A stretch of 64,000 nt of DNA from contig JAWPMW010000001.1 in the NCBI GenBank assembly GCA_033344735.1, positions 911,869 through 975,868 on the forward strand. The letters are read 5' to 3'. Shown here in pieces: positions 1 to 47,796 of this stretch. The stretch is from Gammaproteobacteria bacterium. Lineage in GTDB: Bacteria; Pseudomonadota; Gammaproteobacteria; UBA4575. The position numbers and the translations under genes are program-made. The notes below the pieces were generated by a model. The model worked only from the letters and a program-made list of their open reading frames with translations. It had not been told where the DNA came from and ran no database searches. Within the stretch, counting starts at the first letter, position 1, and each line of letters begins with the position of its first letter.

Positions 1-824
1 TGCAAAGAAATTGATTTCATTTTTAGCTTCTTAATATCAATATGATCTTGAGGGTCGTCAATTAACGCTAATTTTCCTTGTGGTGCTAGTACTTCAACTA
101 TTTGATCAAAATGCTGATCAGTATGGGTAAGGCTGATAACGTGAGTGACATGATTGATCCCCATATCATTCAATTGCTGCTTGAAAGGTTTGTGATGATT
201 AATTACATGGTTTGCACCTAATTCGCTTACCCAATCTTGGCTCTGTTGCCTTGAGGCAGTGCCAATAATTGTTGCATTTATCAGTTGCACAGCCAATTGA
301 GTTAATATCGAACCTACCCCGCCTGCAGCACCAATAATTAATATGCTTGACTTGGGTGATGCATGCCCATCAACGTGATTGTCTTTGCTTGATAGAGTGA
401 AACCAAAACGATCAAACAATATTTCCCAAGCTGTAATGGCAGTTAATGGCATCGCTGCCGCTTCGGTATTTGATAGCGAGGCTGGCTTTTTACCCACGAT
501 CCGTTCATCCACTAATTGATATTCTGCATTTGACCCAGCGCGAGTAATATCTCCGGCATACCAGACCTTGTCACCCACTTTAAATAACTCTACATCATTA
601 CCAATAGCGACAACTTCGCCCACTGCATCCCATCCAAGTATTTTATACTGGCCTGGTTCGGGTGATGCCGATGCGCGTACTTTAGTATCCACGGGATTAA
701 CAGAAACAGCCTGCACTTTGACTAATAAGTCTCGACCTTGTGCTTGAGGTGTGGGTATTTCAATATCGACTAGCGCATCTGCCTCATCGATTGATTTAGG
801 ATGTAAATAGCCAATTGCCTTCAT
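1..824 (-). CDS. Zinc-binding MDR-family alcohol dehydrogenase / quinone oxidoreductase (N-terminal ~275 aa in window; 3' end beyond window edge)
   Basis: Reverse translation from the ATG at 824 gives MKAIGYLHPKSIDEADALVDIEIPTPQ...VGEVVAIGNDV...IIGAAGGVGS, i.e. the GroES-like and Rossmann GxxGxxG motifs of MDR dehydrogenases. The frame stays open to position 1. It is absent from the ORF track because it is truncated by the window. Confidence 0.6.
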   Translation of the reverse strand, partial: MKAIGYLHPKSIDEADALVDIEIPTPQAQGRDLLVKVQAVSVNPVDTKVRASASPEPGQYKILGWDAVGEVVAIGNDVELFKVGDKVWYAGDITRAGSNAEYQLVDERIVGKKPASLSNTEAAAMPLTAITAWEILFDRFGFTLSSKDNHVDGHASPKSSILIIGAAGGVGSILTQLAVQLINATIIGTASRQQSQDWVSELGANHVINHHKPFKQQLNDMGINHVTHVISLTHTDQHFDQIVEVLAPQGKLALIDDPQDHIDIKKLKMKSISL

Positions 825-1091
825 TGTCAATCCTTATGATTGGTATAAGACTTTAATTGCTTAAAAGTCCATTCGTACAAGTATATGTAAGTATTATTCA
901 CAATCTAGGTAGTATATAAAGCCAACAAGCCAGGAAACATAATCAAATTATAATTGATAATGTGTATCAGGAAGTTTTACCCAACTGACAATGAGAAAGA
1001 ATCAGGAACAGACTAAGATTTTTTATAAAGCAAGGTGCCAATGTATTTACTTTGAAAGCGTCATGAGCAGAACAAACAGCAGCTGTTGCTT

Positions 1092-1379
1092 TCAAGGTGA
1101 ACCAAATATACATCCCTGCTCAGTCACGACTACAGGAAAATCACCCAATCCTCTCATCGTGCTCGCTACGGCATATTGTTCTAGCTGAGGTCCAATTTCA
1201 TTCGCGTCTCGGCTTTGGGTAGCAGAGTACATCACGCGAATAAAGTGCGAATCGGTTTGATTAATTAGTCGAAAGCAATAACTTTCTTTATCTTGTTCTT
1301 CTTGAATCTCGAAATCTGAGAATTCGATTTGTAAATATGACAAAACTGCGTCACGGATTTCAATACGATATTCAGACAC
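1092..1379 (-). CDS. hypothetical protein (95 aa), 12 nt downstream of the TlpA-like gene on the same strand
   Basis: ORF track only. No recognisable motifs. It could be co-transcribed with the mtoX-side cluster. Confidence 0.3.
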   Translation of the reverse strand: MSEYRIEIRDAVLSYLQIEFSDFEIQEEQDKESYCFRLINQTDSHFIRVMYSATQSRDANEIGPQLEQYAVASTMRGLGDFPVVVTEQGCIFGSP

Positions 1380-1390
1380 AATATTAAATA

Positions 1391-1978
1391 TTACCCTTTG
1401 TCTGAGTCAGCATCAGCAGTCGCTAAACGCTCATACTCTTTCATAATGCCACGTAGAAAATCAACCATTTCACCTGAATTCCAATCGCGTTCACCTGTGG
1501 CCTTATAAATCAATTTACCGGAAGGGCTAATAAGAAATGTAGTTGGCAAACCTGAGACTTCCCAATTAGACAATGACATATTTTTATCAATAACAATATC
1601 GAAATCGACTGGATTATCTTTTAAAAATTGTTTTACTGTGGCTAATGCTGGACCAACATGTACACCAACCACTTTCAATCCATTGCTAGAATTTAACTTA
1701 TTATGCAAATCATTCAGCGCAGGCATTTCTTTTATGCAGGGTGGACACCAAGTTGCCCAGAAATTGAGTAGTACAAATTTACCCTCATAATCAGATAAGC
1801 TGATATCTGATCCATGCGCGCTCATAAGAGTAAAGTTTGATGCTTTTGAGCCAGATATTTTGTCCATCAAACCATCTGCATGCGACAAAGATATCATTAC
1901 AACTATGACGAAGATAAGCGCTGTTAATAGAGCACCTGATTTAACGAAATTTCTCTTACTGCTAGAACTACACTTCAT
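1391..1978 (-). CDS. TlpA/ResA-like periplasmic thiol:disulfide oxidoreductase (thioredoxin fold, WCPPC)
   Basis: NFWATWCPPCIKEMP active site with a TlpA-like flanking pattern. The signal peptide begins at the internal Met (MKCSSSSKRNFVKSGALLTALIFVIVV), so the start is proposed at 1978 rather than the ORF-track 2056. Confidence 0.75.
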   Translation of the reverse strand: MKCSSSSKRNFVKSGALLTALIFVIVVMISLSHADGLMDKISGSKASNFTLMSAHGSDISLSDYEGKFVLLNFWATWCPPCIKEMPALNDLHNKLNSSNGLKVVGVHVGPALATVKQFLKDNPVDFDIVIDKNMSLSNWEVSGLPTTFLISPSGKLIYKATGERDWNSGEMVDFLRGIMKEYERLATADADSDKG

Positions 1979-2083
1979 AATTACCGCTTTGTATTTAATA
2001 TATACGTTAGTAGAGTCAAATATTATAATTAAGTTCGTTTCGAAACACTTGGCCAACCCTTATTAGATAGCCATTTATCTGGC

Positions 2084-2626
2084 TTATTTCTCAGATACTT
2101 TAGTTTCCTCGTAATCCACAAAGACTTTCTTTAAAAAATCCACCATTGGAGGCGAATTCCACAATCTTGAGCCTACCGCTCGATAAGCAAAATTACCTTC
2201 CGGTGTCAGCAAATAGGATGTTGGCAAGCTCGGCACACCCCAATGTCCTAACTCTAAATTGATATCCATAACTACTGGGTAGCTTACTGGAGAAAGCTCT
2301 AAATGTTCATTCACGCCAATGACATCTGGACCAGCATGCACGGCAACTACCTGCAAGATATTTTCTTCAGCGAGCTGATCTAACAAGTCCTGCATTAATG
2401 ACAATTCAGTACGACATACAGTGCATTTTGTAGTCCAAAAATTTACTAATACAAACTTACCTTGCAAGTCCTCAAGATTAAATTTACCACCCGTGGAATA
2501 AGGCAGCGAAAAGTTTTCAGCATGCATGGTACGCGGCATCGCATCTAATAATCTATCCGCATTTGCTATAGAGCATACAAAAATTAAGACAATGCTAGCA
2601 ATAAATTTTAGTTTCATATCTCTCAT
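2084..2626 (-). CDS. TlpA-like periplasmic thioredoxin, second copy (CxxC = TKCTVC)
   Basis: Signal peptide MKLKFIASIVLIFVCSIANA. Thioredoxin-fold motif NFWTTKCTVCRTE and overall similarity to the neighbouring TlpA-like protein. Confidence 0.7.
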   Translation of the reverse strand: MRDMKLKFIASIVLIFVCSIANADRLLDAMPRTMHAENFSLPYSTGGKFNLEDLQGKFVLVNFWTTKCTVCRTELSLMQDLLDQLAEENILQVVAVHAGPDVIGVNEHLELSPVSYPVVMDINLELGHWGVPSLPTSYLLTPEGNFAYRAVGSRLWNSPPMVDFLKKVFVDYEETKVSEK

Positions 2627-3976
2627 CTATTTCACTTTAAATTCTGAATCATGTGCCCAGTTAGGATCTTGTGAACGAATATCACCAATAGGTGCTGCAA
2701 ATCCATCTGCCACCAGGATTTGAATATTATCGCCCGTTAAAGCATTCATAAAGTCAACCAGCTGATCTATTTCTTGTTCAGTCAAATTCAAGGGCTGTAT
2801 CAACGGACTAAGCAGCTCATTAGGCACACCACCCTGATTGTAAAACTCGACAACCTGACGCAAATTAGTAAACGCACCATCATGCATATAAGGCGCTGTA
2901 AGCGAGATATTGCGTAAGATAGGTGTTCTAAATTTCCAACGATCAAATGGGTTTTGTGTAATTGTGTATAGACCTACATCATTCTGCTTAGGTGTTTGCC
3001 GAACAGAATCTATGACTTCATTATCAACATTCACAAAAACGCCAGGCGCCAACTGCACTCGTGTTTGCTTGGGTTTAACACCCATAGAAACATTGTAGCC
3101 ATGACCTGTATTATGCAGTAATTGATCAGTGAATAATGCGTATTCCTCATTGATCAAATGACAAGCTGAACACTTAGCTTTGCCCGTAAATAGTGCAAAA
3201 CCTGCCTTTTCATCTTTGGTCAATGCATCTTCTTGTTTACCATAATACCATTGATCAAATCTTGAGTTACCTGAATTCAACGTTCTCTGGTAACTTGCTA
3301 ATGCCTCTCCCACCGTCTCCATAGTGGGGCCTTTACCATCAAAGGCTTCTTCAAACAGTCCTTCGTATTCTTTGATGCCTTTTATCTTATTGATAACATA
3401 ACCTATAGAAGGATTTGCCATTTCATTCATAGCAAGAAGTGGTGACCATACTTGTTGCTCTAAACTATCTTCTCTCCCATCGTGGAAAAATATATCGAAG
3501 TAACCCACGTTATAAATTGTTGGGCTATTGCGCTTAACACTACGACCTTCAAAACCAATTGCTGTGGCTAACTCATTATTAGCATAACCTTGTTCAGGTA
3601 TATGGCAGATAGCACAAGAGAATGTATCGTTATGAGATAAACGACGATCAAAGAAGAGCCGACGACCTAAGCTAACCTTCTCTTCAGTCACGGGATTGCC
3701 ATCAGGCATCTTCATTTTTGGCAACCCAAGAGGTGTTTGATAAACAAATTGAAGTAAGTCTGCTTGCTTACCTTTTCGCGCTGTTACACTTAGCGAATTA
3801 GTGACATAAGTTTCTTCATCATAACCATGTTTACGATCGCCTGGTCCGAATATAGCATCTTCATTAATATCTTCATTACTAGCATTAGCAATGAGAAAGG
3901 TAGATGCACTTACATATACACAACAGCCAAATAAAACTAGAATCCAGTGGCGCAATTTTAAATAATCAAGTTTCAT
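2627..3976 (-). CDS. Di-haem cytochrome c peroxidase family protein, MauG-like
   Basis: Signal peptide. Two CxxCH haem motifs (FSCAICHIP and KCSACHLIN) in the spacing typical of the bacterial CCP/MauG family, with the conserved PYMHDG and FYNQGG C-terminal region. Confidence 0.85.
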   Translation of the reverse strand: MKLDYLKLRHWILVLFGCCVYVSASTFLIANASNEDINEDAIFGPGDRKHGYDEETYVTNSLSVTARKGKQADLLQFVYQTPLGLPKMKMPDGNPVTEEKVSLGRRLFFDRRLSHNDTFSCAICHIPEQGYANNELATAIGFEGRSVKRNSPTIYNVGYFDIFFHDGREDSLEQQVWSPLLAMNEMANPSIGYVINKIKGIKEYEGLFEEAFDGKGPTMETVGEALASYQRTLNSGNSRFDQWYYGKQEDALTKDEKAGFALFTGKAKCSACHLINEEYALFTDQLLHNTGHGYNVSMGVKPKQTRVQLAPGVFVNVDNEVIDSVRQTPKQNDVGLYTITQNPFDRWKFRTPILRNISLTAPYMHDGAFTNLRQVVEFYNQGGVPNELLSPLIQPLNLTEQEIDQLVDFMNALTGDNIQILVADGFAAPIGDIRSQDPNWAHDSEFKVK

Positions 3977-3982
3977 TTCAAG

Positions 3983-4711
3983 CTAGCTATCTTGCTCTTC
4001 CATTATTAATGTTTTCAAGTCTGCAATTATAGATTGATCATGTAAAAAGCTTGCACTGTATTGGGTTCTTTTATTACCTTGCTTATCAATTAGAAACACT
4101 CTTAAAATATGTGCAAAGCTATTTGTAGGGTTCCCTTCTTCATCGTATTCTTGATTGACATATTGCCCAAAACTTTGCGTAATTGGATCTAATTCATTAT
4201 GAGATGCTGTGGTTAAAAACTGCCATTCAGGACCACCAAAGTCTTTACTTCCTTGACCATAAAATTTCATCACTTCGGGCGTGTCATATTTTGGATCGAA
4301 ACTCAAACTCACCAACCTGAGTTGGTCCGATAATTCGGGGTCGTCTTTCAATGCCTCTTTTAATTTATAGTAGACTGCTGTTACAAGCGGGCAACCATTT
4401 AAATCAGAACATTGCGTAAACATAAAGCTAAGAAGAACAACTTTATCTCCATAAAATTCTGATAGACGTTTCTGCTCGCCTTCATCTGTTAACACATCAC
4501 CGTCGGCGGCCTTTCCAAACGGAGGTAACTCATAAGTCCCAGGCTCAGGCAATTCAAATTGCATATCACCCCACCCTGGTGCATGAAGAAGAACTTGATC
4601 TTCATGACTAGACAATACCGCAGAATGTTCTGCTTCATTATCTGTTTTATCGCATCCGTATAGCGATACAATTATTAGTGAAAAACAAACCAGATATACG
4701 TTTTTCATCAT
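3983..4711 (-). CDS. SCO1/SenC-family copper chaperone (lipoprotein)
   Basis: Lipobox LYGC. Thioredoxin-like core with FTQCSDLNGCP (Cx5CP variant of the Sco CxxxCP motif) and a SFDPKYDTPEVMKFY block resembling the Sco DPxRDTP region. Confidence 0.65.
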   Translation of the reverse strand: MMKNVYLVCFSLIIVSLYGCDKTDNEAEHSAVLSSHEDQVLLHAPGWGDMQFELPEPGTYELPPFGKAADGDVLTDEGEQKRLSEFYGDKVVLLSFMFTQCSDLNGCPLVTAVYYKLKEALKDDPELSDQLRLVSLSFDPKYDTPEVMKFYGQGSKDFGGPEWQFLTTASHNELDPITQSFGQYVNQEYDEEGNPTNSFAHILRVFLIDKQGNKRTQYSASFLHDQSIIADLKTLIMEEQDS

Positions 4712-4738
4712 TCCTTTTTAATCCTCTATATAAACAAA

Positions 4739-4765
4739 AGGCCGCCTTCTAAGGCGGCCTTTTTT
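4739..4765. terminator. Bidirectional rho-independent terminator hairpin
   Basis: aaaaGGCCGCCttctaaGGCGGCCtttttt: perfect 9-bp GC-rich stem flanked by A-run and T-run, 50 nt downstream of the mtoX stop (minus strand). Confidence 0.6.
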
Positions 4766-4816
4766 ATTTACAGCTTTTACGTTTACGTAATAAACGCTAG
4801 CCTAACCTCGGTTCAA

Positions 4817-6196
4817 TTATTTATCTACTTGAGACAACATTGTATCCGAAGAGTTCGGCTTTTGAGAGTAAAGCGAATAAGCGCCAAATCTCATTTGGTG
4901 TGCACGACCTAACTTCAATTGATAGAAGTCGATTGTGAACTGATGATCCAGTTTCTTACCATTCCAATGGAACAGTTTGAACCATTGCTCATCATCTTTA
5001 CCAGTCTTATCCCAGTTACCTAACAAGGAAGTAGTGAAGTAAGCACGCTTACCATCCCAGCTTTGAGAGATCATGTTCACTTGTGAACCAATTTGATGCT
5101 CATATGTTTGCTTAGGATTGTGTGGGTCACTGATGTCAAAGTAACGTGTCTTTCCGTCCATGAAAGTTTGAACCCAAAGACCTTGGTCATCAGCGGTGAT
5201 TGAGATATCAACAGGAAGAGGCACTTTTGAAGGATCGCCGATGTCAGCAACTTCCTCTGCTTGCCACTCACCATCTTTGTCTTCATAAACCAACCAGATT
5301 TTTGAAGTCAGAGCAGTTGTAGTAAAACAGAAGTTGTTAAGTCCAGACCATGCACAACGAATTTCTAAAGGTGCACCTGGTACATCAAATACCTTCTTAG
5401 GCTTACGAGTGTGCAAGTCCCAAAGTACCATTGTGTTACCAAAACGTTTCATAGCTTCTGGATCAGACAACATTTGACCGAAGTCCATCATGTAGTTTGA
5501 CCAACCAGTAAATGAAGAAGTTAACATCACGTTGCGTCGTGGAAGCACTCGCACATCGTATCCATAACCGTCAGCAAAATTACCAGTCTTGTTAGCACCA
5601 CGAAGATCGTCGTCAGTTGGGAACCAGTGTGCAGAAACGAAGTCGCCTTCACTAGTGTACTCGGCCATACCAGTTCGACCACCATGGTCTACATTGTTAG
5701 ACAGGGCAGATACCATAATACGTCCAGGTAATGCATAGAAAGTATGAGGGCCAACCATGCCACCAGTCTTGTCAACAAAGTCAGTGATCACTTTGTGAAG
5801 GCTAGGCTGACGTGGATTTGAATGGACATCAAAAATAAAGATCTTGTTGCTATCTAAGCCACCTGCCCATAAATAGCGACGGTCATCAGATAAACCAGAG
5901 TGATGAGCTTCGTTACGACCGCCCACTGAAACGATATGGACAACTTCACCATAATCATCAGCATCTGGGTTTACAGAAATTGTCACAAGCTTATCTTGCT
6001 CGTCACCCAATCCTTCAACACCTAACGTCCATACATATACATAATCTTCCTGGCCAACAATCTTAGCCATGTAAGGTGACATGCATGTCTCATCAGCTTG
6101 AACAGCTGCAGGCATTCCACCAACTAATGCTACTGCACTGATTAATGCTGAAGCTACTGTGCCTCTTGCCCATTTAAAAGGAAGCATTTTTTTCAT
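4817..6196 (-). CDS. mtoX: Methanethiol oxidase, selenium-binding protein 56 (SBP56) family, periplasmic
   Basis: Signal peptide. Full-length similarity to SELENBP1/MtoX (PSLHKVITDF, RYFDISDPHNPKQ, GKRAYFTTSLLGNWDKTG blocks). Flanked by SCO1 and MauG-like genes as in described mtoX loci. Confidence 0.85.
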   Translation of the reverse strand: MKKMLPFKWARGTVASALISAVALVGGMPAAVQADETCMSPYMAKIVGQEDYVYVWTLGVEGLGDEQDKLVTISVNPDADDYGEVVHIVSVGGRNEAHHSGLSDDRRYLWAGGLDSNKIFIFDVHSNPRQPSLHKVITDFVDKTGGMVGPHTFYALPGRIMVSALSNNVDHGGRTGMAEYTSEGDFVSAHWFPTDDDLRGANKTGNFADGYGYDVRVLPRRNVMLTSSFTGWSNYMMDFGQMLSDPEAMKRFGNTMVLWDLHTRKPKKVFDVPGAPLEIRCAWSGLNNFCFTTTALTSKIWLVYEDKDGEWQAEEVADIGDPSKVPLPVDISITADDQGLWVQTFMDGKTRYFDISDPHNPKQTYEHQIGSQVNMISQSWDGKRAYFTTSLLGNWDKTGKDDEQWFKLFHWNGKKLDHQFTIDFYQLKLGRAHQMRFGAYSLYSQKPNSSDTMLSQVDK

Positions 6197-6553
6197 TGTT
6201 TAAACTCCATAAATTTTACTAATTAAAGTAGATCTAATCTCGAATCAAGATACACAAATGGTAACGGCTTAGATCCACATAAACACACACCCACGGATGG
6301 GCTAACCAAAATCCAGTTCGATGTGCGACATTATGCCGCATCTAGCCCGACTATCAAGTTCTAATAAGATACTAGTTGTCATACATCAATTGAACGTAAG
6401 ATACTAAATTAGCTCGACTTATAGGTATATTCACTCAAACTGAGTGGATTTCTGAAATTAGACCCTTTTTGGTGCATTTATGACCTATATAGAGAGAAAC
6501 TGTCTAGCAGACTTATAGTCTTAAAAGTATAAATTCAACCTAAATCTTAAATT

Positions 6554-7129
6554 ATGGACATTTATAAAATTATCAAGCCATCTAGCCGCACAGCATATGC
6601 ATTTATCCTATGTGTTTTGTTGTCAGCTGGCCAGGTAAATGCAGCCAAATTGGGAGGTGAATTTGAGTTAACCTCCCACAAAGGAGAAACTTTTAGACTC
6701 AGTGATATTAAAGGGAAAGTTGGAATTATATTCTTTGGATTTACCCATTGCCCAGATGTATGTCCTAATACCCTGCTAGAAATCCAGCGTTTAATCATCA
6801 ACTTAGAAGACCAAGCAAAGCACTTAAAAGTACTCTTTATTAGCGTAGATCCTAAGAGAGATACTCCAAGTAAATTAAATAGTTATGTAACATACTTCAA
6901 CAAAAATATTATTGGTCTAACTGGCTCTCAAGAAGACATCGCTAAAGTACTTAAACAATTTAATGCTAGCGTAAAATTTAGCGGTGATACGAGCTCAGAA
7001 ACTTATAATGTAGAACACACCGCGAATATTTTTCTTATCAATAAGCAAGGCGACATTGGCAGCATCATTCTTCCTCGAACCCCCTTTAAAGTATTAGAGC
7101 AACAAGTACGCAAATTGATCTCAGAGTAA
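6554..7129 (+). CDS. SCO1/SenC-family copper chaperone
   Basis: Canonical FGFTHCPDVCP (CxxxCP) motif and SVDPKRDTP block. Signal peptide. Divergent from mtoX. Confidence 0.85.
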   Translation: MDIYKIIKPSSRTAYAFILCVLLSAGQVNAAKLGGEFELTSHKGETFRLSDIKGKVGIIFFGFTHCPDVCPNTLLEIQRLIINLEDQAKHLKVLFISVDPKRDTPSKLNSYVTYFNKNIIGLTGSQEDIAKVLKQFNASVKFSGDTSSETYNVEHTANIFLINKQGDIGSIILPRTPFKVLEQQVRKLISE

Positions 7130-7516
7130 TTAATCGTATTTTATATACGCAAAACGCTGATCATCAGGTACACCATCCAAATCAGGCTCATCCTTTGCTG
7201 GATCCCACTGGATAACTTCCTCTATCTTTTTAGCCAAGGCAAAATCTTTATTGGTAACGCCTTTGGCAGCGTGGTTCATCAATTTGACGACCACGAATGC
7301 ATAAGAAACTGTCAAATCCGGGTGATGCCAAGCAGCTTCAGCTAAGTGACCCACTGTATTCACCACCATCAGCGTCCCTTTCCAACTATTTGTCTTATAT
7401 TTACGTCGAATCCATCCATTCTCGTAGTACCAATTGGGTAACTCTTCAGCCAATCGGAGTTCAATTTGTTCATCGGTATAAGTTTCTTCAGGCTGGATAT
7501 CTCGCCACTTCGCCAT
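7130..7516 (-). CDS. Pterin-4a-carbinolamine dehydratase (PCD/DCoH)-like protein
   Basis: EAAWHHPDLTVSYAFVVVKLMNHAAKGVT resembles the PCD signature ExxxHHPxxxxxYxxVxVxLxTH...G[LV]T. Longer than canonical PCD, with an extra C-terminal region. Confidence 0.5.
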   Translation of the reverse strand: MAKWRDIQPEETYTDEQIELRLAEELPNWYYENGWIRRKYKTNSWKGTLMVVNTVGHLAEAAWHHPDLTVSYAFVVVKLMNHAAKGVTNKDFALAKKIEEVIQWDPAKDEPDLDGVPDDQRFAYIKYD

Positions 7517-7670
7517 ATTAGATCTCCATTTCTATATCGTTCGAGTTATGCTCGACTCAAAAGTCATAGCTATATTAAATCGATGATATACGCTTTCCGT
7601 CAGAAATCACGTAAAATAGCACCCTCGCATCAACTCAAATCAATTTTTACCTAGGAATCCAAGGCTCATT

Positions 7671-9347
7671 ATGGACAAAGCAGTCACGCGCAAACGGAAT
7701 AAAATGAGGGGAGAGAAACGTGGAAGAAGCGTTAATCCTCTGGCTTTACAACAAGTTCGTGAATTATTAGGTGACATGCCCATTCGGCGCGACCTATTAA
7801 TTGAATATTTACATTTAATTCAGGATAAATATTTCCATATCTCTGCCGACCATATGACGGCATTAGCAAGTGTCATGAAATTAGCGACGACAGAAGTATA
7901 CGAAGTCGCATCTTTCTATCATCACTTTGATTTAGTCAAAGAAGGTCATCATGCTCCACCAGAACTAACCATCAGAGTATGCGATTCGGTTAGTTGCGAA
8001 ATGAATGATGCAAAAGCAATTATTAACACACTTGGAGGTAAATATAACGGTGAAATTCGCGTTCAACCTGTGCCATGTGTAGGACGTTGCGAACAAGCTC
8101 CAGTTGCGGTTGTAGGGACTAATGCAATTCCGTATGCAAACATAGATAAGATTGTCGCTGCGGTAGATAAAAATGAAAAAGAAGCTGTCGCACCTGCCTG
8201 CATTAATTTTGAAGAATACAAAAAGGATGGCGGTTATCAAACCTTATCTAAATTAATTAATGGTTCACTTTCTAAAGAAGATGTCATAACTACATTAGAA
8301 GATTCAAACTTACGTGGCTTAGGTGGCGCTGGATTCCCCGCAGGTAGAAAGTGGAGAATTGTAGGCGACCAACCTGCACCAAGAATTATGGCTGTTAATA
8401 TCGATGAAGGAGAACCAGGCACCTTCAAAGATCGTTACTATCTTGAAAGAGATCCACACAGATTTTTAGAAGGCATGTTAATTGCCGCATACGTTGTTGG
8501 CACTGATGCTATTTATATTTACTTGCGAGATGAATACGCTGGTGTACGCAAAGCATTAACCAGTGAATTAGAAAAGTTAAAAGCGGGTCTACCGCACGAA
8601 CTCCCTCATATTGAATTAAGGCGTGGTGCTGGCGCATATATTTGTGGTGAAGAATCAGCAATGATTGAATCCATAGAAGGCAAACGTGGTATGCCTCGTT
8701 TACGACCTCCATTTGTTGCACAAGTTGGTGTATTTGGACGCCCTACCCTTGAACACAATATGGAAACTCTTTATTGGGTACGAGATTTAATTGAACGTGG
8801 TGCGGAATGGTTCACATCGAACGGAAGACACGATCGTAAAGGATTACGTTCATTCTCTGTCAGCGGACGTGTAAAAAATCCCGGCGTGCATTTAGCTCCA
8901 GCAGGAATCACAGTTAAAGAATTAATCGATGAGTTTTGTGGCGGAATGCTGGAAGGTCATGAATTTTATGGTTACTTTCCTGGGGGTGCTTCTGGTGGAA
9001 TTCTTCCCGCATCCATGGGCGACATTCCAATGGACTTTGATACACTCAATGAATACGGATGCTTTATTGGTTCAGCAGCAGTAATGATTTTCTCAAATCA
9101 AGACAGTGCAAAACAGTTAGCACATAACGCAATGAAATTTTTCTCGCATGAATCATGCGGTAAATGTACACCATGCCGAGTTGGCACTTCCAAAGCAGTT
9201 ATGTTGATGGATAAAGATGATTGGAACCAACCATTAATGAAAGAACTTTCTCAAACCATGAATGACGCTTCCATTTGCGGTTTAGGTCAAGCAGCATCGA
9301 ACCCAATGCAATGCGTCATCAATTATTTTCCAGAAGAATTGAAATGA
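7671..9347 (+). CDS. fdsB: NAD-dependent formate dehydrogenase beta subunit with fused N-terminal NuoE-like (gamma) [2Fe-2S] domain and NuoF-like NAD/FMN/[4Fe-4S] domain
   Basis: N-terminal Cys cluster CDSVSC...CVGRC (NuoE-like). GLGGAGFPAGRKW and ESCGKCTPCR motifs of the NuoF/FdsB family. Confidence 0.85.
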   Translation: MDKAVTRKRNKMRGEKRGRSVNPLALQQVRELLGDMPIRRDLLIEYLHLIQDKYFHISADHMTALASVMKLATTEVYEVASFYHHFDLVKEGHHAPPELTIRVCDSVSCEMNDAKAIINTLGGKYNGEIRVQPVPCVGRCEQAPVAVVGTNAIPYANIDKIVAAVDKNEKEAVAPACINFEEYKKDGGYQTLSKLINGSLSKEDVITTLEDSNLRGLGGAGFPAGRKWRIVGDQPAPRIMAVNIDEGEPGTFKDRYYLERDPHRFLEGMLIAAYVVGTDAIYIYLRDEYAGVRKALTSELEKLKAGLPHELPHIELRRGAGAYICGEESAMIESIEGKRGMPRLRPPFVAQVGVFGRPTLEHNMETLYWVRDLIERGAEWFTSNGRHDRKGLRSFSVSGRVKNPGVHLAPAGITVKELIDEFCGGMLEGHEFYGYFPGGASGGILPASMGDIPMDFDTLNEYGCFIGSAAVMIFSNQDSAKQLAHNAMKFFSHESCGKCTPCRVGTSKAVMLMDKDDWNQPLMKELSQTMNDASICGLGQAASNPMQCVINYFPEELK

Positions 9348-9379
9348 AGAACTCAAATAAGGAAATGGAGTAACCACAA

Positions 9380-12139
9380 ATGGCAGCTAACCCAAAAGAT
9401 TTAAAAGAATTAAAAACGGTTGAGTTCTCGTTAAACGGAGAAAAAATTCACGCGTTTGAAGATGAAACAATTTTACAAGCAGCACGAAGAAACGGCATAG
9501 AAATTCCACATTTATGTTATACCGATGGCATGCGCGCTGATGGCAACTGTCGTGCTTGTGTTGTTGAGATTGAAGGTGAACGTGTTTTACAACCATCGTG
9601 TGTTCGTACTCCAACTGAAGGCATGGTTGTTAGTACTGAAAATGACCGCGTTCTACATTCACAAAAAATGGTGCTTGAATTATTACAGTCAGACATCGTC
9701 GATAAAAAATATACTTTAAATAGCGAGCTTGATGAATGGTCACAAAAACTTGAAATTGGCTTGCCACGTTTTGAATCACGTCATAATCCTGAACAAGATC
9801 TATCTCACCCAGCAATTGCTGTAAATTTAGATGCTTGCATTCAATGCACACGTTGTTTACGTGCCTGCCGAGAAGAGCAGAACAATGATGTAATTGGCTA
9901 CGCTAACCGTGGTTCACATTCTGAAATTGTGTTTGATATAGCGGATCCGATGGGTGATAGCTCATGTGTCGCTTGCGGAGAATGTGTGCAGGCTTGTCCG
10001 ACGGGCGCTCTGATGCCATCAAAAGAATTAGGCCTGCAGGAACCAGACAAAAAAGTAGATTCAACCTGCCCTTACTGTGGTGTTGGCTGTTTACTTACAT
10101 TCAACATCAAAGATGAAAAAATTATTTACGTTGAAGGCCGCGATGGTCCCGCCAATAAGGGGCGGCTATGTGTCAAAGGGCGCTATGGTTTCGATTACAT
10201 CCATAATGAGCGTCGTTTAACCAAGCCTTTAATTCGCAAAGAAGGTGCAGCTAAAGTGACAGACATTGAAAATCTCTCGCAAGATGAGATTAGTGCAATG
10301 TTTAGAGAAGCCACTTGGGATGAAGCATTAGAGTTTGCTGCTAAAGGTCTTCGAGATATTCGTGATGACCTTGGTGGCAATGCACTAGCAGGCTTTGGTT
10401 CTGCTAAAGGCTCAAACGAAGAAGCCTACTTATTCCAGAAACTAATTCGCACTGGCTTCAAGACTAACAACGTTGATCACTGTACACGTTTGTGTCATGC
10501 CTCTTCTGTTGTCGCATTACTAGAAGGTTTGGGTTCAGGTGCAGTTTCCAATCAAGTTGCTGAGGTTGAAGACGCAGAAGTAATTTTAATTATTGGCTCA
10601 AACCCAACGACCAACCACCCAGTGGCTGCGACATTCATCAAGAATGCTGCGCGTGATGGTAAAAAATTAATCGTTATGGACCCTCGCCGCACTGAGATTG
10701 CACGTCACGCAGATTATGTATTGCAATTCAAACCAGACACAGATGTTGCCATGCTAAATGCCATTATGCATTCCATTGTTAAACAAGGCTTAGTGGATAA
10801 AGACTTTATTGAAAAACGTACAGAAGGTTATGCTGAACTTGAAGAACATCTAAAAGATTTCTCTCCTGAAGAAATGGAAAAAATCTGTGGCGTTCCTGCA
10901 GAAACATTACACGAGGTAGCACGAGTTTATGCATCTTCTAAAGCATCAATTATTTTCTGGGGCATGGGTGTTTCACAGCACATTCATGGCACCGATAATG
11001 CACGTTGTTTGATTGCATTATCATTAATTACCGGCCAGATTGGCAAACCCGGTTCTGGTTTACATCCCTTGCGCGGTCAAAACAATGTGCAAGGCGCATC
11101 AGATGTGGGCTTAATTCCAATGGTTTTCCCTGATTATCAACGTGTGGATAACCCAGAGGCACAGGCTAGATTTGAAAAACTTTGGGACACCCAATTAGAT
11201 CCTAACCCAGGGTTAACCGTAGTAGAGATCATGGACGAAATCACTGATGGCAAAATTTTAGGTATGTACGTTGAAGGAGAAAACCCTGCAATGTCTGACC
11301 CCAACTTAAACCACGCGCGTAAAGCCTTAGCATCACTAAAACATTTAGTCGTACAAGACATATTTATGACTGAGACCGCATTATTTGCTGATGTAGTTCT
11401 CCCAGCCTCTGCTTTCCCCGAGAAAGATGGCTCGTTTACCAATACTGATCGTCGCGTACAACTTGGACGCCAAGCAGTTAACCCACCAGGTGAGGCCAAA
11501 CAGGACTTGTGGATAATCCAAGAGATAGCCAAACGTTTAGACTGTGATTGGAACTATTCAAGTCCAAGTGACGTATTTGCAGAGATGCGTTTAGGTATGG
11601 ACTCAATTAAAGGCATGTCGTGGGAACGCTTAGAACAAGACAATTCAATCACATATCCATGTGATACCCCTGAAGATCCGGGTCAAGGCATTATATTTAT
11701 TGATGACTTCCCTACTGCAAGCGGTAAAGGCAAATTAGTGCCAGCCAAGTTTACTAATGCTGATGAATTACCTGATAGCGAATATAGTTTTGTATTAATC
11801 ACTGGCCGTCAATTAGAACATTGGCATACTGGTGCAATGACGAGACATGCATCAATGTTGGACGCAATTGAACCAGTACCAGTGGCATCAATTAACCCAA
11901 AAGATCTAGAGAAATTAGGATTAAAACCAAACGAAATGATCCGTTTAAGCTCACGTCGTGGCAGCATTGAATGTTATTCGCGTGTTGATAGTGGTTTGAG
12001 ACAAGGCCAAGTATTCATGCCATTCTGTTATCATGAAGCAGCTGCTAACCTATTAACGACAGATGCACTAGATCCGTTTGCTAAAATTCCAGAATTTAAA
12101 TTCTGTGCAATCAAATTAGGTCCGGTCGAAAAACATTAA
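9380..12139 (+). CDS. fdsA: NAD-dependent formate dehydrogenase alpha subunit (molybdopterin, NuoG-like N-terminal Fe-S domains)
   Basis: N-terminal 2Fe-2S (CYTDGMRADGNCRAC), two 4Fe-4S motifs (CIQCTRCLRAC, CVACGECVQACP) and a molybdopterin domain with HCTRLCHASS. 919 aa. Confidence 0.9.
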   Translation: MAANPKDLKELKTVEFSLNGEKIHAFEDETILQAARRNGIEIPHLCYTDGMRADGNCRACVVEIEGERVLQPSCVRTPTEGMVVSTENDRVLHSQKMVLELLQSDIVDKKYTLNSELDEWSQKLEIGLPRFESRHNPEQDLSHPAIAVNLDACIQCTRCLRACREEQNNDVIGYANRGSHSEIVFDIADPMGDSSCVACGECVQACPTGALMPSKELGLQEPDKKVDSTCPYCGVGCLLTFNIKDEKIIYVEGRDGPANKGRLCVKGRYGFDYIHNERRLTKPLIRKEGAAKVTDIENLSQDEISAMFREATWDEALEFAAKGLRDIRDDLGGNALAGFGSAKGSNEEAYLFQKLIRTGFKTNNVDHCTRLCHASSVVALLEGLGSGAVSNQVAEVEDAEVILIIGSNPTTNHPVAATFIKNAARDGKKLIVMDPRRTEIARHADYVLQFKPDTDVAMLNAIMHSIVKQGLVDKDFIEKRTEGYAELEEHLKDFSPEEMEKICGVPAETLHEVARVYASSKASIIFWGMGVSQHIHGTDNARCLIALSLITGQIGKPGSGLHPLRGQNNVQGASDVGLIPMVFPDYQRVDNPEAQARFEKLWDTQLDPNPGLTVVEIMDEITDGKILGMYVEGENPAMSDPNLNHARKALASLKHLVVQDIFMTETALFADVVLPASAFPEKDGSFTNTDRRVQLGRQAVNPPGEAKQDLWIIQEIAKRLDCDWNYSSPSDVFAEMRLGMDSIKGMSWERLEQDNSITYPCDTPEDPGQGIIFIDDFPTASGKGKLVPAKFTNADELPDSEYSFVLITGRQLEHWHTGAMTRHASMLDAIEPVPVASINPKDLEKLGLKPNEMIRLSSRRGSIECYSRVDSGLRQGQVFMPFCYHEAAANLLTTDALDPFAKIPEFKFCAIKLGPVEKH

Positions 12140-24153: not shown

Positions 24154-27100
24154 TTAAAATGCTTGAATTAGATTAAGTCTAACACCACTAATTTGAGTAT
24201 TATCTTCACGAAGGAAGAATGTTACTACGTGTTGCCCTGGTGTAAGATTAAGTGTTACCGCACCACTCTCTCCTCGGTTTGTAACAAGTGTAGGCACAAA
24301 TGAACTATAGTGTTGTCCTGTATCCCATAAGTATGGTGTTGATGGACCACCATCAACTTGGACAAAGAATGAATCTGAGCCAAAGCTATTTGCAAAAATA
24401 TCTGCTTCTATTTGATAGAGTCCTGCAGTTGTAACATTAAATGTAAACTGCGCTGATCCAGTACTTGGCGTGAAACTATAGTAATCACCAAATGATTCTG
24501 GCACGTGTATGTACTGGCCATTTGCAGCTAACACAAAGGCACCTGATAAACTTGCAGAACTAGCAGGCAAATCTAGTACTTCAGGACCACCACCAGTATC
24601 AGCCTCAACTGTAATAGACACCGCTGCGCTGGTTGTCGTGGCTGCTTCATTATCTGTCACTACTGCTGTCAAGCTATACGCACCTTCAGTCGCACCATTC
24701 CAAGTAAAGCTGTATGGTGCAGTGATGTCACTACTTAACAATGTTGTTCCAGCATAAAAATCTACACTGGTAACACTACCGTCACTATCTGAAGCAGATG
24801 CTGTAATGTTTATTGTATCACCGACAGTAAATGTTGCATTCGCGGCAGGTGCTGTAATCACTACTGTAGGATCAACATTAGCTGGCACCGTAACCGTGAT
24901 ATCAATTGCCACACTTGTAGTGGTCGCGGCTTCATTATCAGTCGCAACTGCTGTCAAGCTGTGAGCACCTTCAGTCGCACCATTCCAAGTGAAACTATAT
25001 GGCGCAGTAGTGTCTGTACTTAACAATGTTGCTCCGTCATAAAAATCCACACTTGTTACAGTACCATCACTATCCGATGCAGATGCTGTGATGTTTATTG
25101 CATCGCCTAGAGTAAATGTCGCGTTTGCGGCAGGTGCTGTAATCGCTACTGTAGGATCAACATTAGCTGCCGGAGTATTTACATTGATATTTATAGCTGC
25201 ACTTGTAGTGGTCGCGGCTTCATTATCTGTCGCAATTGCTGTCAAGCTGTGAGCACCTTCAGTCGCACCATTCCAAGTGAAGCTATATGGTGCAGTGGTA
25301 TCTGTACTTAATAGTATTGCTCCATCATAAAAATCTACACTGGTAATACTACCGTCACTATCTGAAGCAGATGCTGTAATGTTTATTGCATCACCCACAG
25401 TGAATGTTGCATTCGCAGCAGGTGCTGTAATCGCTACTGTAGGATCAACATTAGGTGGCGGTGTTACCGTGATATTAACATCACCACTTACAGAAACATC
25501 ACCATCATCATCAGTTGCAACCGCAGTGACTATATGTGCACCCTCTGCAGCACCATTCCAGGTAAAGCTATATGGCGCAGTGGTATCTGTGCTTAACAAT
25601 ATTGCTCCATCATAAAACTCTACACTTGTTACAGTGCCGTCACTATCTGAGGCATCAGCAATTAAGGTAATAGCGTTACCAAAAACAAATGATGCATTGT
25701 CGGATGGTGCCGTTAAATTTACAGTTGGTTCAATATTTGGAATTGGCTGATTGACGCTGATATTAACTATCGCACTTGTCGTTGCCGCCCCTTCATTGTC
25801 AGTTGCAACTGCAGTCAAGCTATGAGCACCTAATGATGCTCCATTCCAAATGAAGCTGTAAGGCGCATTAACATCGGTACTTAACAACGTGGCACCATCA
25901 TAAAACTCAACACTTATAATTGAACCACCTGGATCTGTTGCATCAGCAGTTAATGAAATAGCGTCACCGACAGTATAGGTAGCATTTGCTATAGGCGCAG
26001 TAAGGCCTACTGTTGGCGCAACATTTTGAGATGGTTGATCTAGGATTAGTTTTACGTTACTTAACTGAGTACCAGATTCTCGATGGTAAAAAGTTACGAC
26101 ATGCTCACCTGCTGATAAATTAACAGTCACTGGATCAGTTTCACCACGATTAATGATCAGTAGAGGTGTGAAAGTATTCTGTATTTCCGTATCCCATAAA
26201 TAAGGTGTATTTGGCACACCATCAACACGAATATAAAATGAATCCGACGTATCATCATTAGCTAGTACCGTTGCCTCAATCTGATATGTCCCCGCAGTCA
26301 CAACATTAAATGTAAACTCTGCATAACCTGCACTTATTCCAAAGTCATAGGCAGGTTCGATATTTTGTGGAACCTCGATAAACTGATTATCAGGAGAAAG
26401 TGCAAATGCTCCAAATATAACTGCATCTTGAGCTGCCTGCTCTAAAACCTCTAAACCTGTATCGCCGAATGGTGTTTCATCAGCATTATCACCAATACCA
26501 TCACCATCGGTATCTTGTGTTTCCGTTGGATCATTCGGGAATACATCACTGTTATCACCAACACCGTCACCATCGGTATCTTGTGTTTCTGTTGGATCAT
26601 TCGGGAATGCATCTTCTGTATCTAGAACGCCATCACCGTCACTATCTATAAAGCTAGCTTGTTCTAGGTAAGCAGACAATTGATCAAGTTCTGTAGAACT
26701 TAAGGTTACAGTATTATGCGCACTAATCGCTTCAGCAACAGTTTGTGCCGAGCCGTCATGTAAATAAGGTGCAGTCTTAAAGATACCAAGCAATGTTGGA
26801 GTATCAAAGCCATCAAGAGTTGACCCTAAACGTTGGCCACTAGCGGTATCAATTGTGCCAATATCATGCAATAGAGCTTGCTCAGAATCTGTCAACAAAA
26901 TCCCAGTATGGCAACTTGTACAACCACTATTATTAAATACAATTTCACCCGCGATTGCTTCAGCTGTCATATCAACCGCAGCAACGGCATATGGATTGGC
27001 AGGTATTTCAGTCAATGAATTCACGTAAGCGGCTAATGCATCAAGATCAGCACTAAGACCTGCCTTTGGAATACCCAGCGTGTCGCTAGTTGCAGTAAAA

Positions 27101-31885: not shown

Positions 31886-33118
31886 TTATTTAACTGACAA
31901 CATATTTAAAAAAGCGACTAAATGATCAAGCTGCTCTGATTGTAAATTCAGTGGCTTTAATTCATGAGCGCCATTATCAGTAGGTGGATGATTATAAAAT
32001 TCCACAACCTCCTTTAATGTGTTAAATCGACCATCATGAAAATAAGGTCCAGTTAACTCAACGTTGCGCAGTGATGGAGTTTTGTAGGCTCCATGAAGTG
32101 GAATATGATTAGTGCGATTTAGAAATCTCAGCGCCGTGCAACTATCAGGTTTAGCATCACTATAAGCACCCAAGCAATTAAATTCATCCATCAACACTGC
32201 TTGAAGTCCAAAGACGCGACCAAAATCAAGCTTGCCTCCTTCAAATCTTCCACTACCAACATTATGAAATCCACCATTAGTCAATAACGCTCCATTATGG
32301 CACTGCATACATTGTGTTTTCTCAGGATCAATAAACAATTTAATCCCTTCTATCTCATCTTTAGTGGGTTCAATGACTTGATTATTTTTATCGAATAACT
32401 GATCAACATAGTTATCAAATCGACTAGGCTTAGGTGCTAACGTTCTTTCATAGGCTTCAATCACCTTACCTAGATTAGAGTACACTCTATTTATCTTTTT
32501 CTGCGTTAAAATAGGTAAACGATACCAGTTATCCTGTGTTTTCATATCACCAAATGGTCCAGCGTGTTTAGGCAAATCACTACTTAGAAAATTTTTCGGA
32601 AATTCACCAAAAATTGACTCGTACATGTCGCGATAGTTCTCATCTTGAGTGACAATACGTACCACAGCAAGGCGACTGCTGCCCATCTCGTCCTTTGCCT
32701 CAAATGGTATAAGCGCTTGTGCCCAAAGTGAATCTCGACGACCATCCCAATAAAACCATCGCAACCATCCACTACCAACAATCGTGGGAGTATTTCTTCC
32801 TGCAGTGTTTTTACTGTTTATATGAGGCAGACCATCTGTGAAATATTTATCTGGTTGATGACAAGTAGCACAAGATGTATCACCATTGCCACTTAAACGT
32901 TCATCAAAAAAAAGTTTCTCTCCAAATGATTTGGCTTGAGGAAGATCAGCAAAACGATTAGATGCGCTATCAGGCAAAGAAGGCAACGCAGAAAGTGATA
33001 GCGACTGCAATATAGATAACTCATATTTAGTCCACTGCCTGTCGCCTGCAAAACAGAATACTGGCAGGCAAAAAGTTATAAGCAAAGTTAACGCGTTAAA
33101 ACGAGAGTTCAATATCAA
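31886..33118 (-). CDS. Di-haem cytochrome c peroxidase family protein (CcpA/MauG-like)
   Basis: Signal peptide. CATCH and CMQCH haem motifs. GPYFHDGRFNTLKEVVEFYN C-terminal block. Overlaps the upstream small gene by 23 nt. Confidence 0.85.
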   Translation of the reverse strand: MILNSRFNALTLLITFCLPVFCFAGDRQWTKYELSILQSLSLSALPSLPDSASNRFADLPQAKSFGEKLFFDERLSGNGDTSCATCHQPDKYFTDGLPHINSKNTAGRNTPTIVGSGWLRWFYWDGRRDSLWAQALIPFEAKDEMGSSRLAVVRIVTQDENYRDMYESIFGEFPKNFLSSDLPKHAGPFGDMKTQDNWYRLPILTQKKINRVYSNLGKVIEAYERTLAPKPSRFDNYVDQLFDKNNQVIEPTKDEIEGIKLFIDPEKTQCMQCHNGALLTNGGFHNVGSGRFEGGKLDFGRVFGLQAVLMDEFNCLGAYSDAKPDSCTALRFLNRTNHIPLHGAYKTPSLRNVELTGPYFHDGRFNTLKEVVEFYNHPPTDNGAHELKPLNLQSEQLDHLVAFLNMLSVK

Positions 33119-41447: not shown

Positions 41448-41639
41448 GGATTTTCCACCCGCATAGAAAGCAAGTTAATGAATTTTATGCTGACAAGATA
41501 ACATTGGCACCTTAAAACTTGCAACTTGATAGGTGCAGAATGGTGTTATTCATTTCAATAATTTTTGTAAGCTATTATTCAGAAGAGATATTCCTACTTA
41601 ACAATCAAGAAACACTAAGAGATTCTTTAGGTATAAGCT

Positions 41640-43046: not shown

Positions 43047-43251
43047 AATGATTTACCTTGATTCTTTAATTTTTTTCTTGTCTTGTACTTTAGCTATTAA
43101 TGTCATAAAAGTGGGGAGTAATGATTCATTACAATATTTTAAGAAATTTATATAAATCAAATCTACTACTTGAAATTAACACCCATCATATTTTCAACAA
43201 CATGATCTAATTGATTTATAAAATATCAGTCTTAAAATCCATAATATATAA

Positions 43252-43515: not shown

Positions 43516-43603
43516 TTCTCACCTCCAATTATTTTTACGTAACAATGTGCCAGATAGAATACTCACTTATCTGGCACATTAAACTACTACAGTATAATTT
43601 TGC

Positions 43604-45055: not shown

Positions 45056-45099
45056 AATTCTCCTACCCTTCTTTGAATTGATGTTATCCAAAGTAGTAC

Positions 45100-45114
45100 T
45101 GCAAATGACATGCC
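45100..45114 (-). promoter_or_regulatory. Sigma-54 (-24/-12) promoter for the LLM monooxygenase operon
   Basis: Minus strand reads aGGCATGtcatTTGCAg, matching the TGGCAC-n5-TTGCA consensus with correct GG-n10-GC spacing. An NtrC-type activator gene lies in the same gene string. Confidence 0.5.
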
Positions 45115-47758: not shown

Positions 47759-47796
47759 GCCGCCGCCTTATTTTCTTGATTAAGTTGTTTTACTCA

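Follow-up and report, generated by a model that had tools for sequence, protein, structure and literature searches.

We believe, with moderate confidence, that a cluster of genes in a 64,000-nucleotide stretch of DNA from a gammaproteobacterium of the UBA4575 lineage (assembly GCA_033344735.1, contig JAWPMW010000001.1, positions 911,869 to 975,868; the whole stretch is hereafter called the window) encodes a periplasmic copper-dependent methanethiol oxidase, MtoX, together with its own assembly kit. Judged by its sequence, the locus is a genuine methanethiol oxidase (mtoX) gene cluster of the kind already published. The cluster is retained in a clade of uncultured gammaproteobacteria from the sea, and chance could not account for its gene arrangement. 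In the marine cycling of sulfur through dimethylsulfoniopropionate and dimethylsulfide (DMS), methanethiol oxidation holds a central place, and the human homologue of MtoX, SELENBP1, shares its activity. How MtoX acquires copper, and whether it contains a tryptophan-derived cofactor, are questions that have stood since 2017.

The oxidase gene (4817-6196, minus strand) encodes a protein of 459 aa that scored 759.8 bits against the NCBIfam 'methanethiol oxidase' equivalog NF052453, above the cut-off of 650 and over model positions 2-407 of 408. The original prediction had called this an mtoX locus and proposed a search of the open reading frame (ORF) against the SBP56 family as a check; PF05694 was indeed matched (3e-49; 168.5 bits against a threshold of 34). 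Over residues 29-438, MtoX is 67% identical to MtoX of Ruegeria pomeroyi (SPOA0269), whose gene likewise precedes those for a SCO protein and a di-haem peroxidase-family protein. Knockout of R. pomeroyi mtoX abolishes methanethiol oxidation, MtoX contains Cu, and four conserved histidines (Hyphomicrobium His89, His90, His140 and His412) are its proposed copper ligands (PMC5739008). The same work, Eyice et al., 2017, defined the mtoX-SCO1-mauG arrangement and proposed that SCO1 inserts copper while MauG makes a cofactor of the tryptophan tryptophylquinone (TTQ) type (PMC5739008). In the window MtoX the four histidines are His98, His99, His151 and His433, matched to the Hyphomicrobium numbering by motif pattern, not by direct alignment. 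They are invariant, as is Cys38, in 83 MtoX sequences including that of R. pomeroyi, and align with histidines of the archaeal SBP56 structure 2ECE. The N-terminus, MKKMLPFKWARGTVASALISAVALVGGMPAAVQA|DETC, resembles by eye a Sec signal ending AVQA|DETC; the mature start ADETC is invariant, Cys38 lies close to the mature N-terminus, and MtoX holds 11 invariant tryptophans. Two further cysteines, Cys281 and Cys290, are conserved in 81-82 of the 83 sequences (the gammaproteobacterial group), are Phe and Ala in R. pomeroyi, and could possibly form a clade-specific disulfide. An ORF of equal length (459 aa) at 52154-53533 was considered as a second mtoX copy and rejected, as it encodes an unrelated flavoprotein disulfide oxidoreductase.

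Five helper genes follow mtoX and a hairpin on the same strand. A Sco-like protein linked to mtoX, ScoL (ScoL242; 3983-4711, minus strand, 242 aa), is encoded after a 105-bp spacer and is followed by a MauG/MbnH-type di-haem enzyme (2627-3976, minus strand, 449 aa), two TlpA-like thioredoxin-fold proteins, A and B, here TlpA180 (2084-2626, minus strand, 180 aa) and TlpA-B (1391-1978, minus strand, 195 aa from its ATG), and a small conserved protein, orf95 (1092-1379, minus strand, 95 aa). The genes are tightly packed, with gaps of 6 bp between ScoL and the di-haem gene, 0 bp between the di-haem gene and TlpA180, 27-105 bp between the TlpA genes and 11 bp between TlpA-B and orf95. On the other side of mtoX, across a 357-bp divergent spacer, lies a canonical Sco1/SenC gene, Sco191 (6554-7129, plus strand, 191 aa). 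All seven ORFs appear in the ORF list at these coordinates, and the families first assigned to them, including that of the divergent SCO1, were confirmed by Pfam and NCBIfam matches. Hydrophobic N-terminal signals were recognised by eye in MtoX, ScoL, the di-haem protein, TlpA180, TlpA-B and Sco191.

To place this arrangement in context, one genome per species was scanned, which gave 80 mtoX loci (numbered with the prefix L) whose MtoX proteins are 69-95% identical to that of the window. The window proteins were mapped on these loci by tblastn and then recounted, with downstream counts taken from the 61 loci having at least 4.5 kb after mtoX and two-flank counts from 55 loci. Directly behind mtoX, the Sco-like and di-haem pair is found in 55 of the 61; about 30 have one or more TlpA-like genes behind the pair (gaps of 0-100 bp), 10 have both TlpA paralogues and 12 have orf95. 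Of 70 loci with the pair, 22 encode ScoL and the di-haem protein as a fusion in one reading frame, and the fusion is also seen in database proteins that combine PF02630 and PF03150. Fusions were counted from the reading frame and stop codons between tblastn matches, not by hidden Markov model, because the ScoL profile absorbs the MauG part and mislabels fused genes. The nine-gene order of formate dehydrogenase, pterin-4a-carbinolamine dehydratase (PCD)-like, Sco, mtoX, ScoL, di-haem, TlpA, TlpA and orf95 recurs in independent metagenome contigs. The extra genes that the original prediction had attached to the mtoX cluster are thus genuinely linked to it: TlpA accompanies about half of the loci, a canonical Sco is found at two positions, and orf95 follows TlpA even where the flanks are unrelated.

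The two Sco proteins had been regarded as a duplication, a view that did not survive comparison of their sequences. Both match PF02630 above its gathering threshold of 22.8 bits (ScoL, 8e-15 and 55.4 bits; Sco191, 1e-45 and 155.4 bits), but their identity of only about 26% shows that they did not arise by recent duplication. Copper binding in canonical Sco proteins relies on a CX3CP motif and a distal histidine (PMC6669012). Sco191, which has a signal-peptide-like N-terminus, contains CPDVCP and His155 (VEHTAN/VDHTSN), conserved in 30 sequences. In contrast, ScoL carries C101-SDLNG-C107-P, a C-x5-CP motif with a two-residue insertion relative to Bacillus subtilis Sco, and so fails the CX3CP definition. 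Across 72 ScoL sequences the patterns C-x-[DE]-x-[NEG]-G-C-P-L and H-x-L-R-x-[FY]-L-I-D do not vary, and His201, the distal histidine of the Cys2His site, is present in every one. ScoL also has a lipobox-like N-terminus (LYGC) and an invariant Trp163. Given that the C-x5-CP pattern is invariant in these 72 sequences and that R. pomeroyi SPOA0270 carries the same C-x5-CP and histidine motif, the sequences indicate that the 'SCO1' of mtoX operons is a distinct Sco subtype. The canonical type adjoins mtoX in 20 of the 55 two-flank loci, divergently upstream in 14 and downstream of a fused sco-mauG in 6 (in Thiodiazotropha, Cocleimonas and others). That linkage is kept while position changes argues for function over inherited gene order.

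The di-haem protein belongs to the CCP_MauG family (PF03150, 4e-49) and contains two invariant CxxCH motifs, C121AICH and C269SACH. Among NCBIfam models it reached its highest score with the MbnH family TIGR04039, at 231.6 bits against a cut-off of 362.85, while the MauG equivalog TIGR03791 gave 208.5 bits against 443.85. The best match in the PDB is 6E1C, which we take to be MbnH, at 146.7 bits over the full length; MauG scored about 94 bits, and canonical peroxidases matched mainly the first half of the protein, at 115-130 bits. Tyr379 (VVEFYNQGG) aligns with the haem ligand Tyr294 of MauG (ILFYNK, chain residues 293-296). At this position 6E1C likewise has a tyrosine, while a canonical peroxidase has a methionine. 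All 68 orthologues carry Tyr379, as does R. pomeroyi SPOA0271, to which the window protein is 51% identical. Among the neighbours at 1-12139, all assigned to other families, there are no mauA or mauB (methylamine dehydrogenase) genes, and no MbnP-type partner gene adjoins the di-haem gene, whose neighbours encode Sco-like and TlpA-like proteins, with orf95 lacking an export signal. The protein, first described as 'MauG-like', has the MauG-type tyrosine ligand but is not MauG proper; it falls well below the MauG cut-off, is not accompanied by mauA or mauB and lies somewhat nearer to MbnH.

For enzymes of the MauG type, H2O2 is the oxidant and peroxidase activity is poor (PMC11892367). MbnH acts on MbnP, which binds copper, and turns one of its tryptophans into kynurenine (PMC11951088). 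Given the tyrosine ligand, the poor peroxidase activity of MauG-type enzymes and the MbnH precedent, we favour oxidative maturation over H2O2 detoxification as the role of the di-haem enzyme, and on our analysis the MbnH precedent opens an alternative to the TTQ proposal. The opposing view would be that the cluster serves damage control, in that the di-haem protein removes H2O2 as a peroxidase, with thiols in the periplasm being repaired or protected, or copper buffered, by the thioredoxin-fold and Sco proteins. There are reasons to take this seriously: MtoX makes H2O2 and releases H2S in the periplasm, Methylophaga thiooxydans induces catalase and peroxiredoxin on DMS (PMC6548844), AhpC-TSA and Redoxin matches were obtained with Pfam, the first half of the di-haem protein resembles canonical peroxidases at the scores given above, and the same window holds what appears to be a second pairing of an H2O2-making copper oxidase-like protein with a di-haem enzyme. 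However, it is the MauG-type tyrosine, not the methionine of detoxifying peroxidases, that is found at the second haem in every orthologue, and enzymes of this type are the poor peroxidases noted above; the thioredoxin-fold proteins have TlpA/ResA-type (W)CxxC motifs and match reductases best, not peroxiredoxins; and detoxification offers no ready explanation for ScoL being fused to the di-haem enzyme. We therefore consider damage control unlikely.

If the di-haem enzyme is oxidative, its substrate could be ScoL and not MtoX, for example through oxidation of the invariant Trp163 to give a special copper site, from which ScoL would then deliver copper to MtoX. The nearest family of the di-haem protein is MbnH, which modifies a copper-binding partner protein (PMC11951088), the ScoL and di-haem genes are always adjacent and are fused in the proportion of loci reported above, and ScoL combines its invariant tryptophan with an unusual metal loop. 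Yet MbnH outscores MauG by little, with 231.6 bits to 208.5 and both below cut-off, ScoL is unrelated to MbnP, and the fusion fits equally well a two-function maturase that acts on MtoX. Moreover, MtoX has its own 11 invariant tryptophans, and published spectroscopy was read as a Trp-derived cofactor in MtoX (PMC5739008). On our analysis, ScoL would be quite an unlikely substrate.

The two TlpA-like proteins both match ResA/TlpA/DsbE-type reductases best, with much weaker matches to peroxiredoxins, in keeping with their first description as TlpA-like thioredoxins. Measured against the cut-offs for named members (TlpA NF047696, ResA NF002854 and DsbE TIGR00385), they are members of the superfamily that fall outside every named orthologue group. 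TlpA-B (PF00578, 1e-25; ResA-like, 1e-34) has the active site WCPPC, with WCxPC conserved in 35 sequences, and scored 119.6 against the ResA cut-off of 170 and 86.1 against the TlpA cut-off of 230. TlpA180 has a cleavable-looking signal peptide (ANA|D) and the atypical active site K-C-T-V-C, in which the tryptophan is missing and the CxxC is conserved in 15 sequences; it scored 74.2 for ResA and 38.3 for TlpA against the same cut-offs, and its matches are to AhpC-TSA/Redoxin in Pfam and to ResA/TlpA/DsbE in NCBIfam, all below cut-off. TlpA-B is the widespread type, and it is such a TlpA that follows the di-haem gene in about 30 of the 61 loci, whereas TlpA180 is limited to loci L001-L013, L021 and L028, that is, the closest clade plus L028. 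A one-to-one pairing of TlpA180 with Sco191 was considered and rejected, their phyletic patterns overlapping but not strictly. For TlpA-B two starts are available, TTG 2056 (221 aa), the one first assigned, and ATG 1978 (195 aa); the latter is the most likely start, as the orthologues are called at 197 aa and the first 26 residues are not conserved.

In CuA assembly, TlpA reduces ScoI and CoxB before metallation (PMC6669012). Given this, the canonical Sco and the TlpA proteins might be housekeeping factors of CuA assembly in cytochrome oxidase that merely lie near mtoX, with only ScoL and the di-haem enzyme serving MtoX; this would suit the textbook CX3CP and histidine of Sco191, the standing of TlpA-Sco-CoxB as the sole experimentally established role of such a pair (PMC6669012) and the working R. 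pomeroyi operon, which has neither canonical Sco nor TlpA, but it is very unlikely in view of the two arrangements in which Sco191 adjoins mtoX across lineages (divergently upstream, or after fused sco-mauG), the TlpA genes 0-100 bp after the di-haem gene in about 30 loci and the absence of cox genes from the window and the fetched flanks.

The intergenic regions were also informative. Within the mtoX/ScoL spacer, a terminator scan located a GC-rich hairpin with a 12-bp stem and a T-rich tail (4736-4763, minus strand). The 105-nt intergenic RNA has a minimum free energy of -33.1 kcal/mol, against -21.0 +/- 2.7 for shuffled sequences (z = -4.4), and an equivalent GGCCGCC...GGCGGCC hairpin stands at the equal position in many related loci, with sequence variation. 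A search of the spacer against Rfam returned sub-threshold matches only, all centred on the hairpin. The same-strand string of genes described in the original prediction therefore holds in its order, with the qualification that a strong terminator-like hairpin separates mtoX from the rest. The hairpin probably terminates transcription in part or stabilises the transcript, and would thereby keep MtoX well in excess of the helper proteins. In the mtoX/sco spacer, a promoter scan gave a candidate mtoX promoter (6330-6357, minus strand) with -35 TTGATA, a 16-nt spacing and -10 CATAAT, matching at 10 of 12 positions. The site coincides with the sole strongly conserved block of this spacer, CTTGAT...AGATGCGGCATAATGTCGCA, which is kept in 11 of 11 aligned loci while the remaining spacer is unalignable. 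An imperfect inverted repeat, TGCGGC-ATAAT-GTCGCA, overlaps the -10 element and could be the operator for a regulator; unlike in R. pomeroyi, where an IclR gene is found, no regulator gene adjoins mtoX here.

From the gene identities, motifs, conserved linkage, fusions, hairpin and promoter block that we observed, we infer the following biochemical steps for assembly of MtoX. First, pre-MtoX and five signal-bearing helper proteins would be exported, with most transcripts stopping at the hairpin after mtoX so that the enzyme would be in excess over the helper proteins. Copper for the His-rich site of MtoX would be handled by ScoL (C-x5-CP...H) and the canonical Sco (CX3CP...H), and the two TlpA-type CxxC reductases would hold the Sco cysteines reduced, as TlpA does for ScoI/CoxB. 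Speculatively, the TlpA proteins may also reduce Cys38 and the clade-specific Cys281/Cys290 of MtoX. The di-haem enzyme probably works in a complex with ScoL, because the two are often fused, and would use H2O2, the by-product of MtoX itself, to oxidise an aromatic residue. This oxidation would create or complete the MtoX active site, or a copper site in ScoL. The orf95 product might be a cytoplasmic accessory, perhaps translationally coupled to TlpA and dispensable for most mtoX operons. Finally, formaldehyde would be disposed of by the adjoining formate dehydrogenase and, in relatives, by the products of tetrahydromethanopterin (H4MPT) genes. In M. thiooxydans, sco1/mauG is induced on DMS together with mtoX (PMC6548844).

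Several points weigh against such an assembly kit. A role of the helper genes in MtoX activity is putative, in the published systems too, and the validated R. pomeroyi operon works without TlpA, a second Sco and orf95, so that these extras are dispensable in at least one organism. Copper binding by the C-x5-CP loop of ScoL is putative, and the di-haem protein is under the curated cut-offs of both MauG and MbnH. The hairpin could be a full terminator, in which case the helper genes would be transcribed separately. Scanning the window ORFs that encode 150 aa or more revealed no electron donor of the DsbD/CcdA type for the TlpA proteins. A single distant homologue of orf95 is located away from mtoX (L084), and mtoX lacks the Sco-like and di-haem pair in 6 of the 61 loci. 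Some genomes carry mtoX copies without nearby helper genes (L016, L018, L020, L022, L027 and L043). The six pair-less loci may be additional mtoX copies, since L027, for example, shares the contig of a metagenome-assembled genome with the full cluster L013. In another locus (L021, 8349-11347), a tandem mtoX pair stands before one helper set.

A bolder form of the assembly proposal can be formulated, although we regard it as unlikely. Here, the Sco-like protein with C-x5-CP and the MbnH-like, Tyr-ligated di-haem enzyme, often fused and found with nearly all bacterial mtoX genes, would constitute an unrecognised two-part metallo-maturase. With H2O2 produced by MtoX it would form, at a copper site, a cofactor derived from the protein itself. 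The product would be kynurenine or a cross-link between Cys38 and a tryptophan, not TTQ, and the present clade would have added a reductase for each Sco type as well as orf95. To our knowledge, fusion to a Sco domain is not a feature of MauG or MbnH.

The locus is best understood as a richer version of the published system and would not surprise a specialist. Its closest characterised counterpart is the operon of Hyphomicrobium sp. VS and R. pomeroyi DSS-3 (PMC5739008), which has the same order of mtoX, Sco-like and di-haem genes. In R. pomeroyi, the resemblance extends to the proteins themselves, in the sequence identities and the ScoL and tyrosine motifs described above. In contrast, the R. 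pomeroyi operon is preceded by the IclR regulator gene and followed by one for a glutathione-dependent formaldehyde dehydrogenase, and is without TlpA, second Sco and orf95; relative to it, the window adds two TlpA paralogues, the canonical Sco, orf95, the PCD-like gene and formate dehydrogenase genes. According to the original prediction the published loci contain mtoX, SCO1 and mauG. This is so for the core, but a TlpA-like gene had already been drawn by Kröber & Schäfer (2019) in M. thiooxydans, where mto clusters 1 and 2 read mtoX - sco1/mauG fusion - tlpA - pdo - sqrB - sulP (PMC6548844), and the TlpA extension is consequently not new in principle. As in the window, the M. thiooxydans gene for a TlpA-like periplasmic thioredoxin-fold protein comes directly after the sco/mauG function, and the helpers were predicted to be periplasmic (PMC6548844). 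M. thiooxydans differs in its fused Sco-MauG and in a single TlpA-like gene followed by sulfide-oxidation genes, whereas the window has separate Sco and di-haem genes (6 bp apart) and two TlpA paralogues followed by orf95, without pdo, sqr or sulP. The M. thiooxydans TlpA-like genes are given locus tags but no DMS expression values in the text and supplements searched (PMC6548844). In PMC5739008 and PMC6548844 we found no description of two TlpA paralogues, of a canonical Sco besides the Sco-like protein, of orf95 or of the motif details.

Two better understood assembly systems offer partial parallels. The TlpA-ScoI-(PcuC)-CoxB pathway of Bradyrhizobium diazoefficiens similarly employs a periplasmic CxxC reductase and a Cys2His Sco to serve a copper enzyme (PMC6669012). 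The logic by which TlpA reduces Sco is established for CuA assembly (PMC6669012), while a maturation pathway for MtoX is what we infer. In the window, the enzyme to be served would be an SBP56 oxidase whose copper site is of the His type, in place of CoxB; there is no PcuC, one Sco is of the C-x5-CP type, one TlpA has KCTVC in place of a W/CVPC-type site, and the genes are clustered with the client enzyme. MauG with pre-methylamine dehydrogenase, and MbnH with MbnP, share with the window protein two c-type haems, a tyrosine at the second haem and a gene paired with that of a periplasmic client, which for MbnH is a copper-binding protein (PMC11951088; PMC11892367). The window differs from both in lacking mauA, mauB and mbnP neighbours, in scoring below both cut-offs and in the frequent fusion to a Sco-like protein. 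While the locus leaves the picture of MtoX unchanged, it is the fullest parts list so far and provides experimental handles in the C-x5-CP Sco subtype, the oxidising di-haem enzyme of MauG/MbnH type, the Sco-di-haem fusions, the two TlpA paralogues and orf95. It is worth annotating and should be useful for the choice of constructs.

The small protein orf95 is a real gene, with 75 close homologues that are nearly all about 95 aa in length, and the family is narrow, with 52 representatives among 1.84 billion proteins. It has no Pfam or NCBIfam match, and its distant members are likewise without Pfam domains; its AlphaFold model is moderate (pLDDT 70.9) and structural matches were uninformative. 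The C-terminus FP(V/I)VVT..GCIFGSP is invariant, even in orthologues of 34-46% identity. In every mtoX operon holding it, orf95 directly follows the TlpA gene (L001-L028, 14 loci; L081, L083, L085 and L089/L090). A remote homologue occurs among unrelated flanks, where rplS is followed by mtoX-sco-mauG-tlpA-orf95, with a 4-bp gap. Like the PCD-like protein, orf95 has no hydrophobic N-terminal signal by eye; in the absence of an export signal it is unlikely to act in the periplasm. It is a clade-restricted and probably cytoplasmic accessory in mtoX operons. The homologue in L084 (368-823) adjoins a GltD-like flavoprotein and a molybdopterin oxidoreductase, and a PCuAC-type (PF04314) copper chaperone is encoded 6 kb away.

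Next to Sco191 lies the gene for a PCD/DCoH-like protein of the pterin-4a-carbinolamine dehydratase family (7130-7516, minus strand, 128 aa; PF01329, 2e-25; NF002017, 82.4 against a cut-off of 80), which is cytoplasmic. In 18 of 55 loci (within L001-L023, plus L066), a gene for this protein, 75-96% identical, lies directly upstream of mtoX and in the same orientation, and the linkage persists without formate dehydrogenase genes and Sco in L015, L017, L019 and L066. The PCD-like protein may have a functional connection with mtoX or with the molybdenum-dependent formate dehydrogenase, and its membership of the cluster is uncertain. Beyond it are an FdsB-like gene (a NuoE/NuoF fusion of 558 aa; 7671-9347, plus strand), identified by Pfam and NCBIfam matches, and a gene for the FdsA-like molybdopterin subunit (9380-12139, plus strand) of what resembles an NAD-linked formate dehydrogenase. 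Many loci have FdsB and FdsA homologues beside the mtoX cluster, whether upstream or downstream of it, and in relatives the H4MPT genes fhc, ftr, mch, fae and mtdB-like flank the cluster. Both sets of neighbours are consistent with oxidation of the formaldehyde released by MtoX. In three such relatives (L081, 8375-16291; L083, 8504-16288; L089, 7590-11689), a convergent gene for a SCO4226-like protein of 90 aa lies beyond orf95, followed by the H4MPT formaldehyde-oxidation genes (fhc-like GXGXG/FTR/Amidohydro_3, MCH, Fae and Mpt_N). At the corresponding position, the window has a Zn-dependent alcohol dehydrogenase-like ORF that runs off its start.

Further along the window, 37 kb from mtoX, an ORF at 43604-45091 (minus strand) encodes a flavin mononucleotide-dependent monooxygenase of the NtaA/DmoA family (TIGR03860, 519.6 bits against 279.7). 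It is a candidate for a DMS monooxygenase that could supply methanethiol, an assignment that a match to the subfamily is insufficient to establish. Its neighbours at 40740-50653 comprise a sigma-54 activator, an AhpC-like protein, a member of the animal-haem-peroxidase family, a CuyA-like pyridoxal phosphate enzyme (below cut-off) and a FocA-like channel of the formate/hydrosulfide type, and this region may be an organosulfur island. Elsewhere, an ORF of 2486 aa (24154-31614, minus strand) combines PA14, glyoxal/galactose-oxidase-like copper-radical-oxidase, CCP_MauG and RoxA-like di-haem domains with at least six Big_7 Ig domains. Directly upstream of it, a stand-alone MauG-type di-haem gene (31886-33118, minus strand, 410 aa) carries the Tyr ligand in 'EVVEFYNHP'. 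These two ORFs would represent a second pairing, within the window, of a putative H2O2-making copper oxidase-like protein with a MauG-type enzyme. Lastly, an integrase-core (rve) ORF at 54788-55879 (plus strand) suggests an insertion sequence or transposase.

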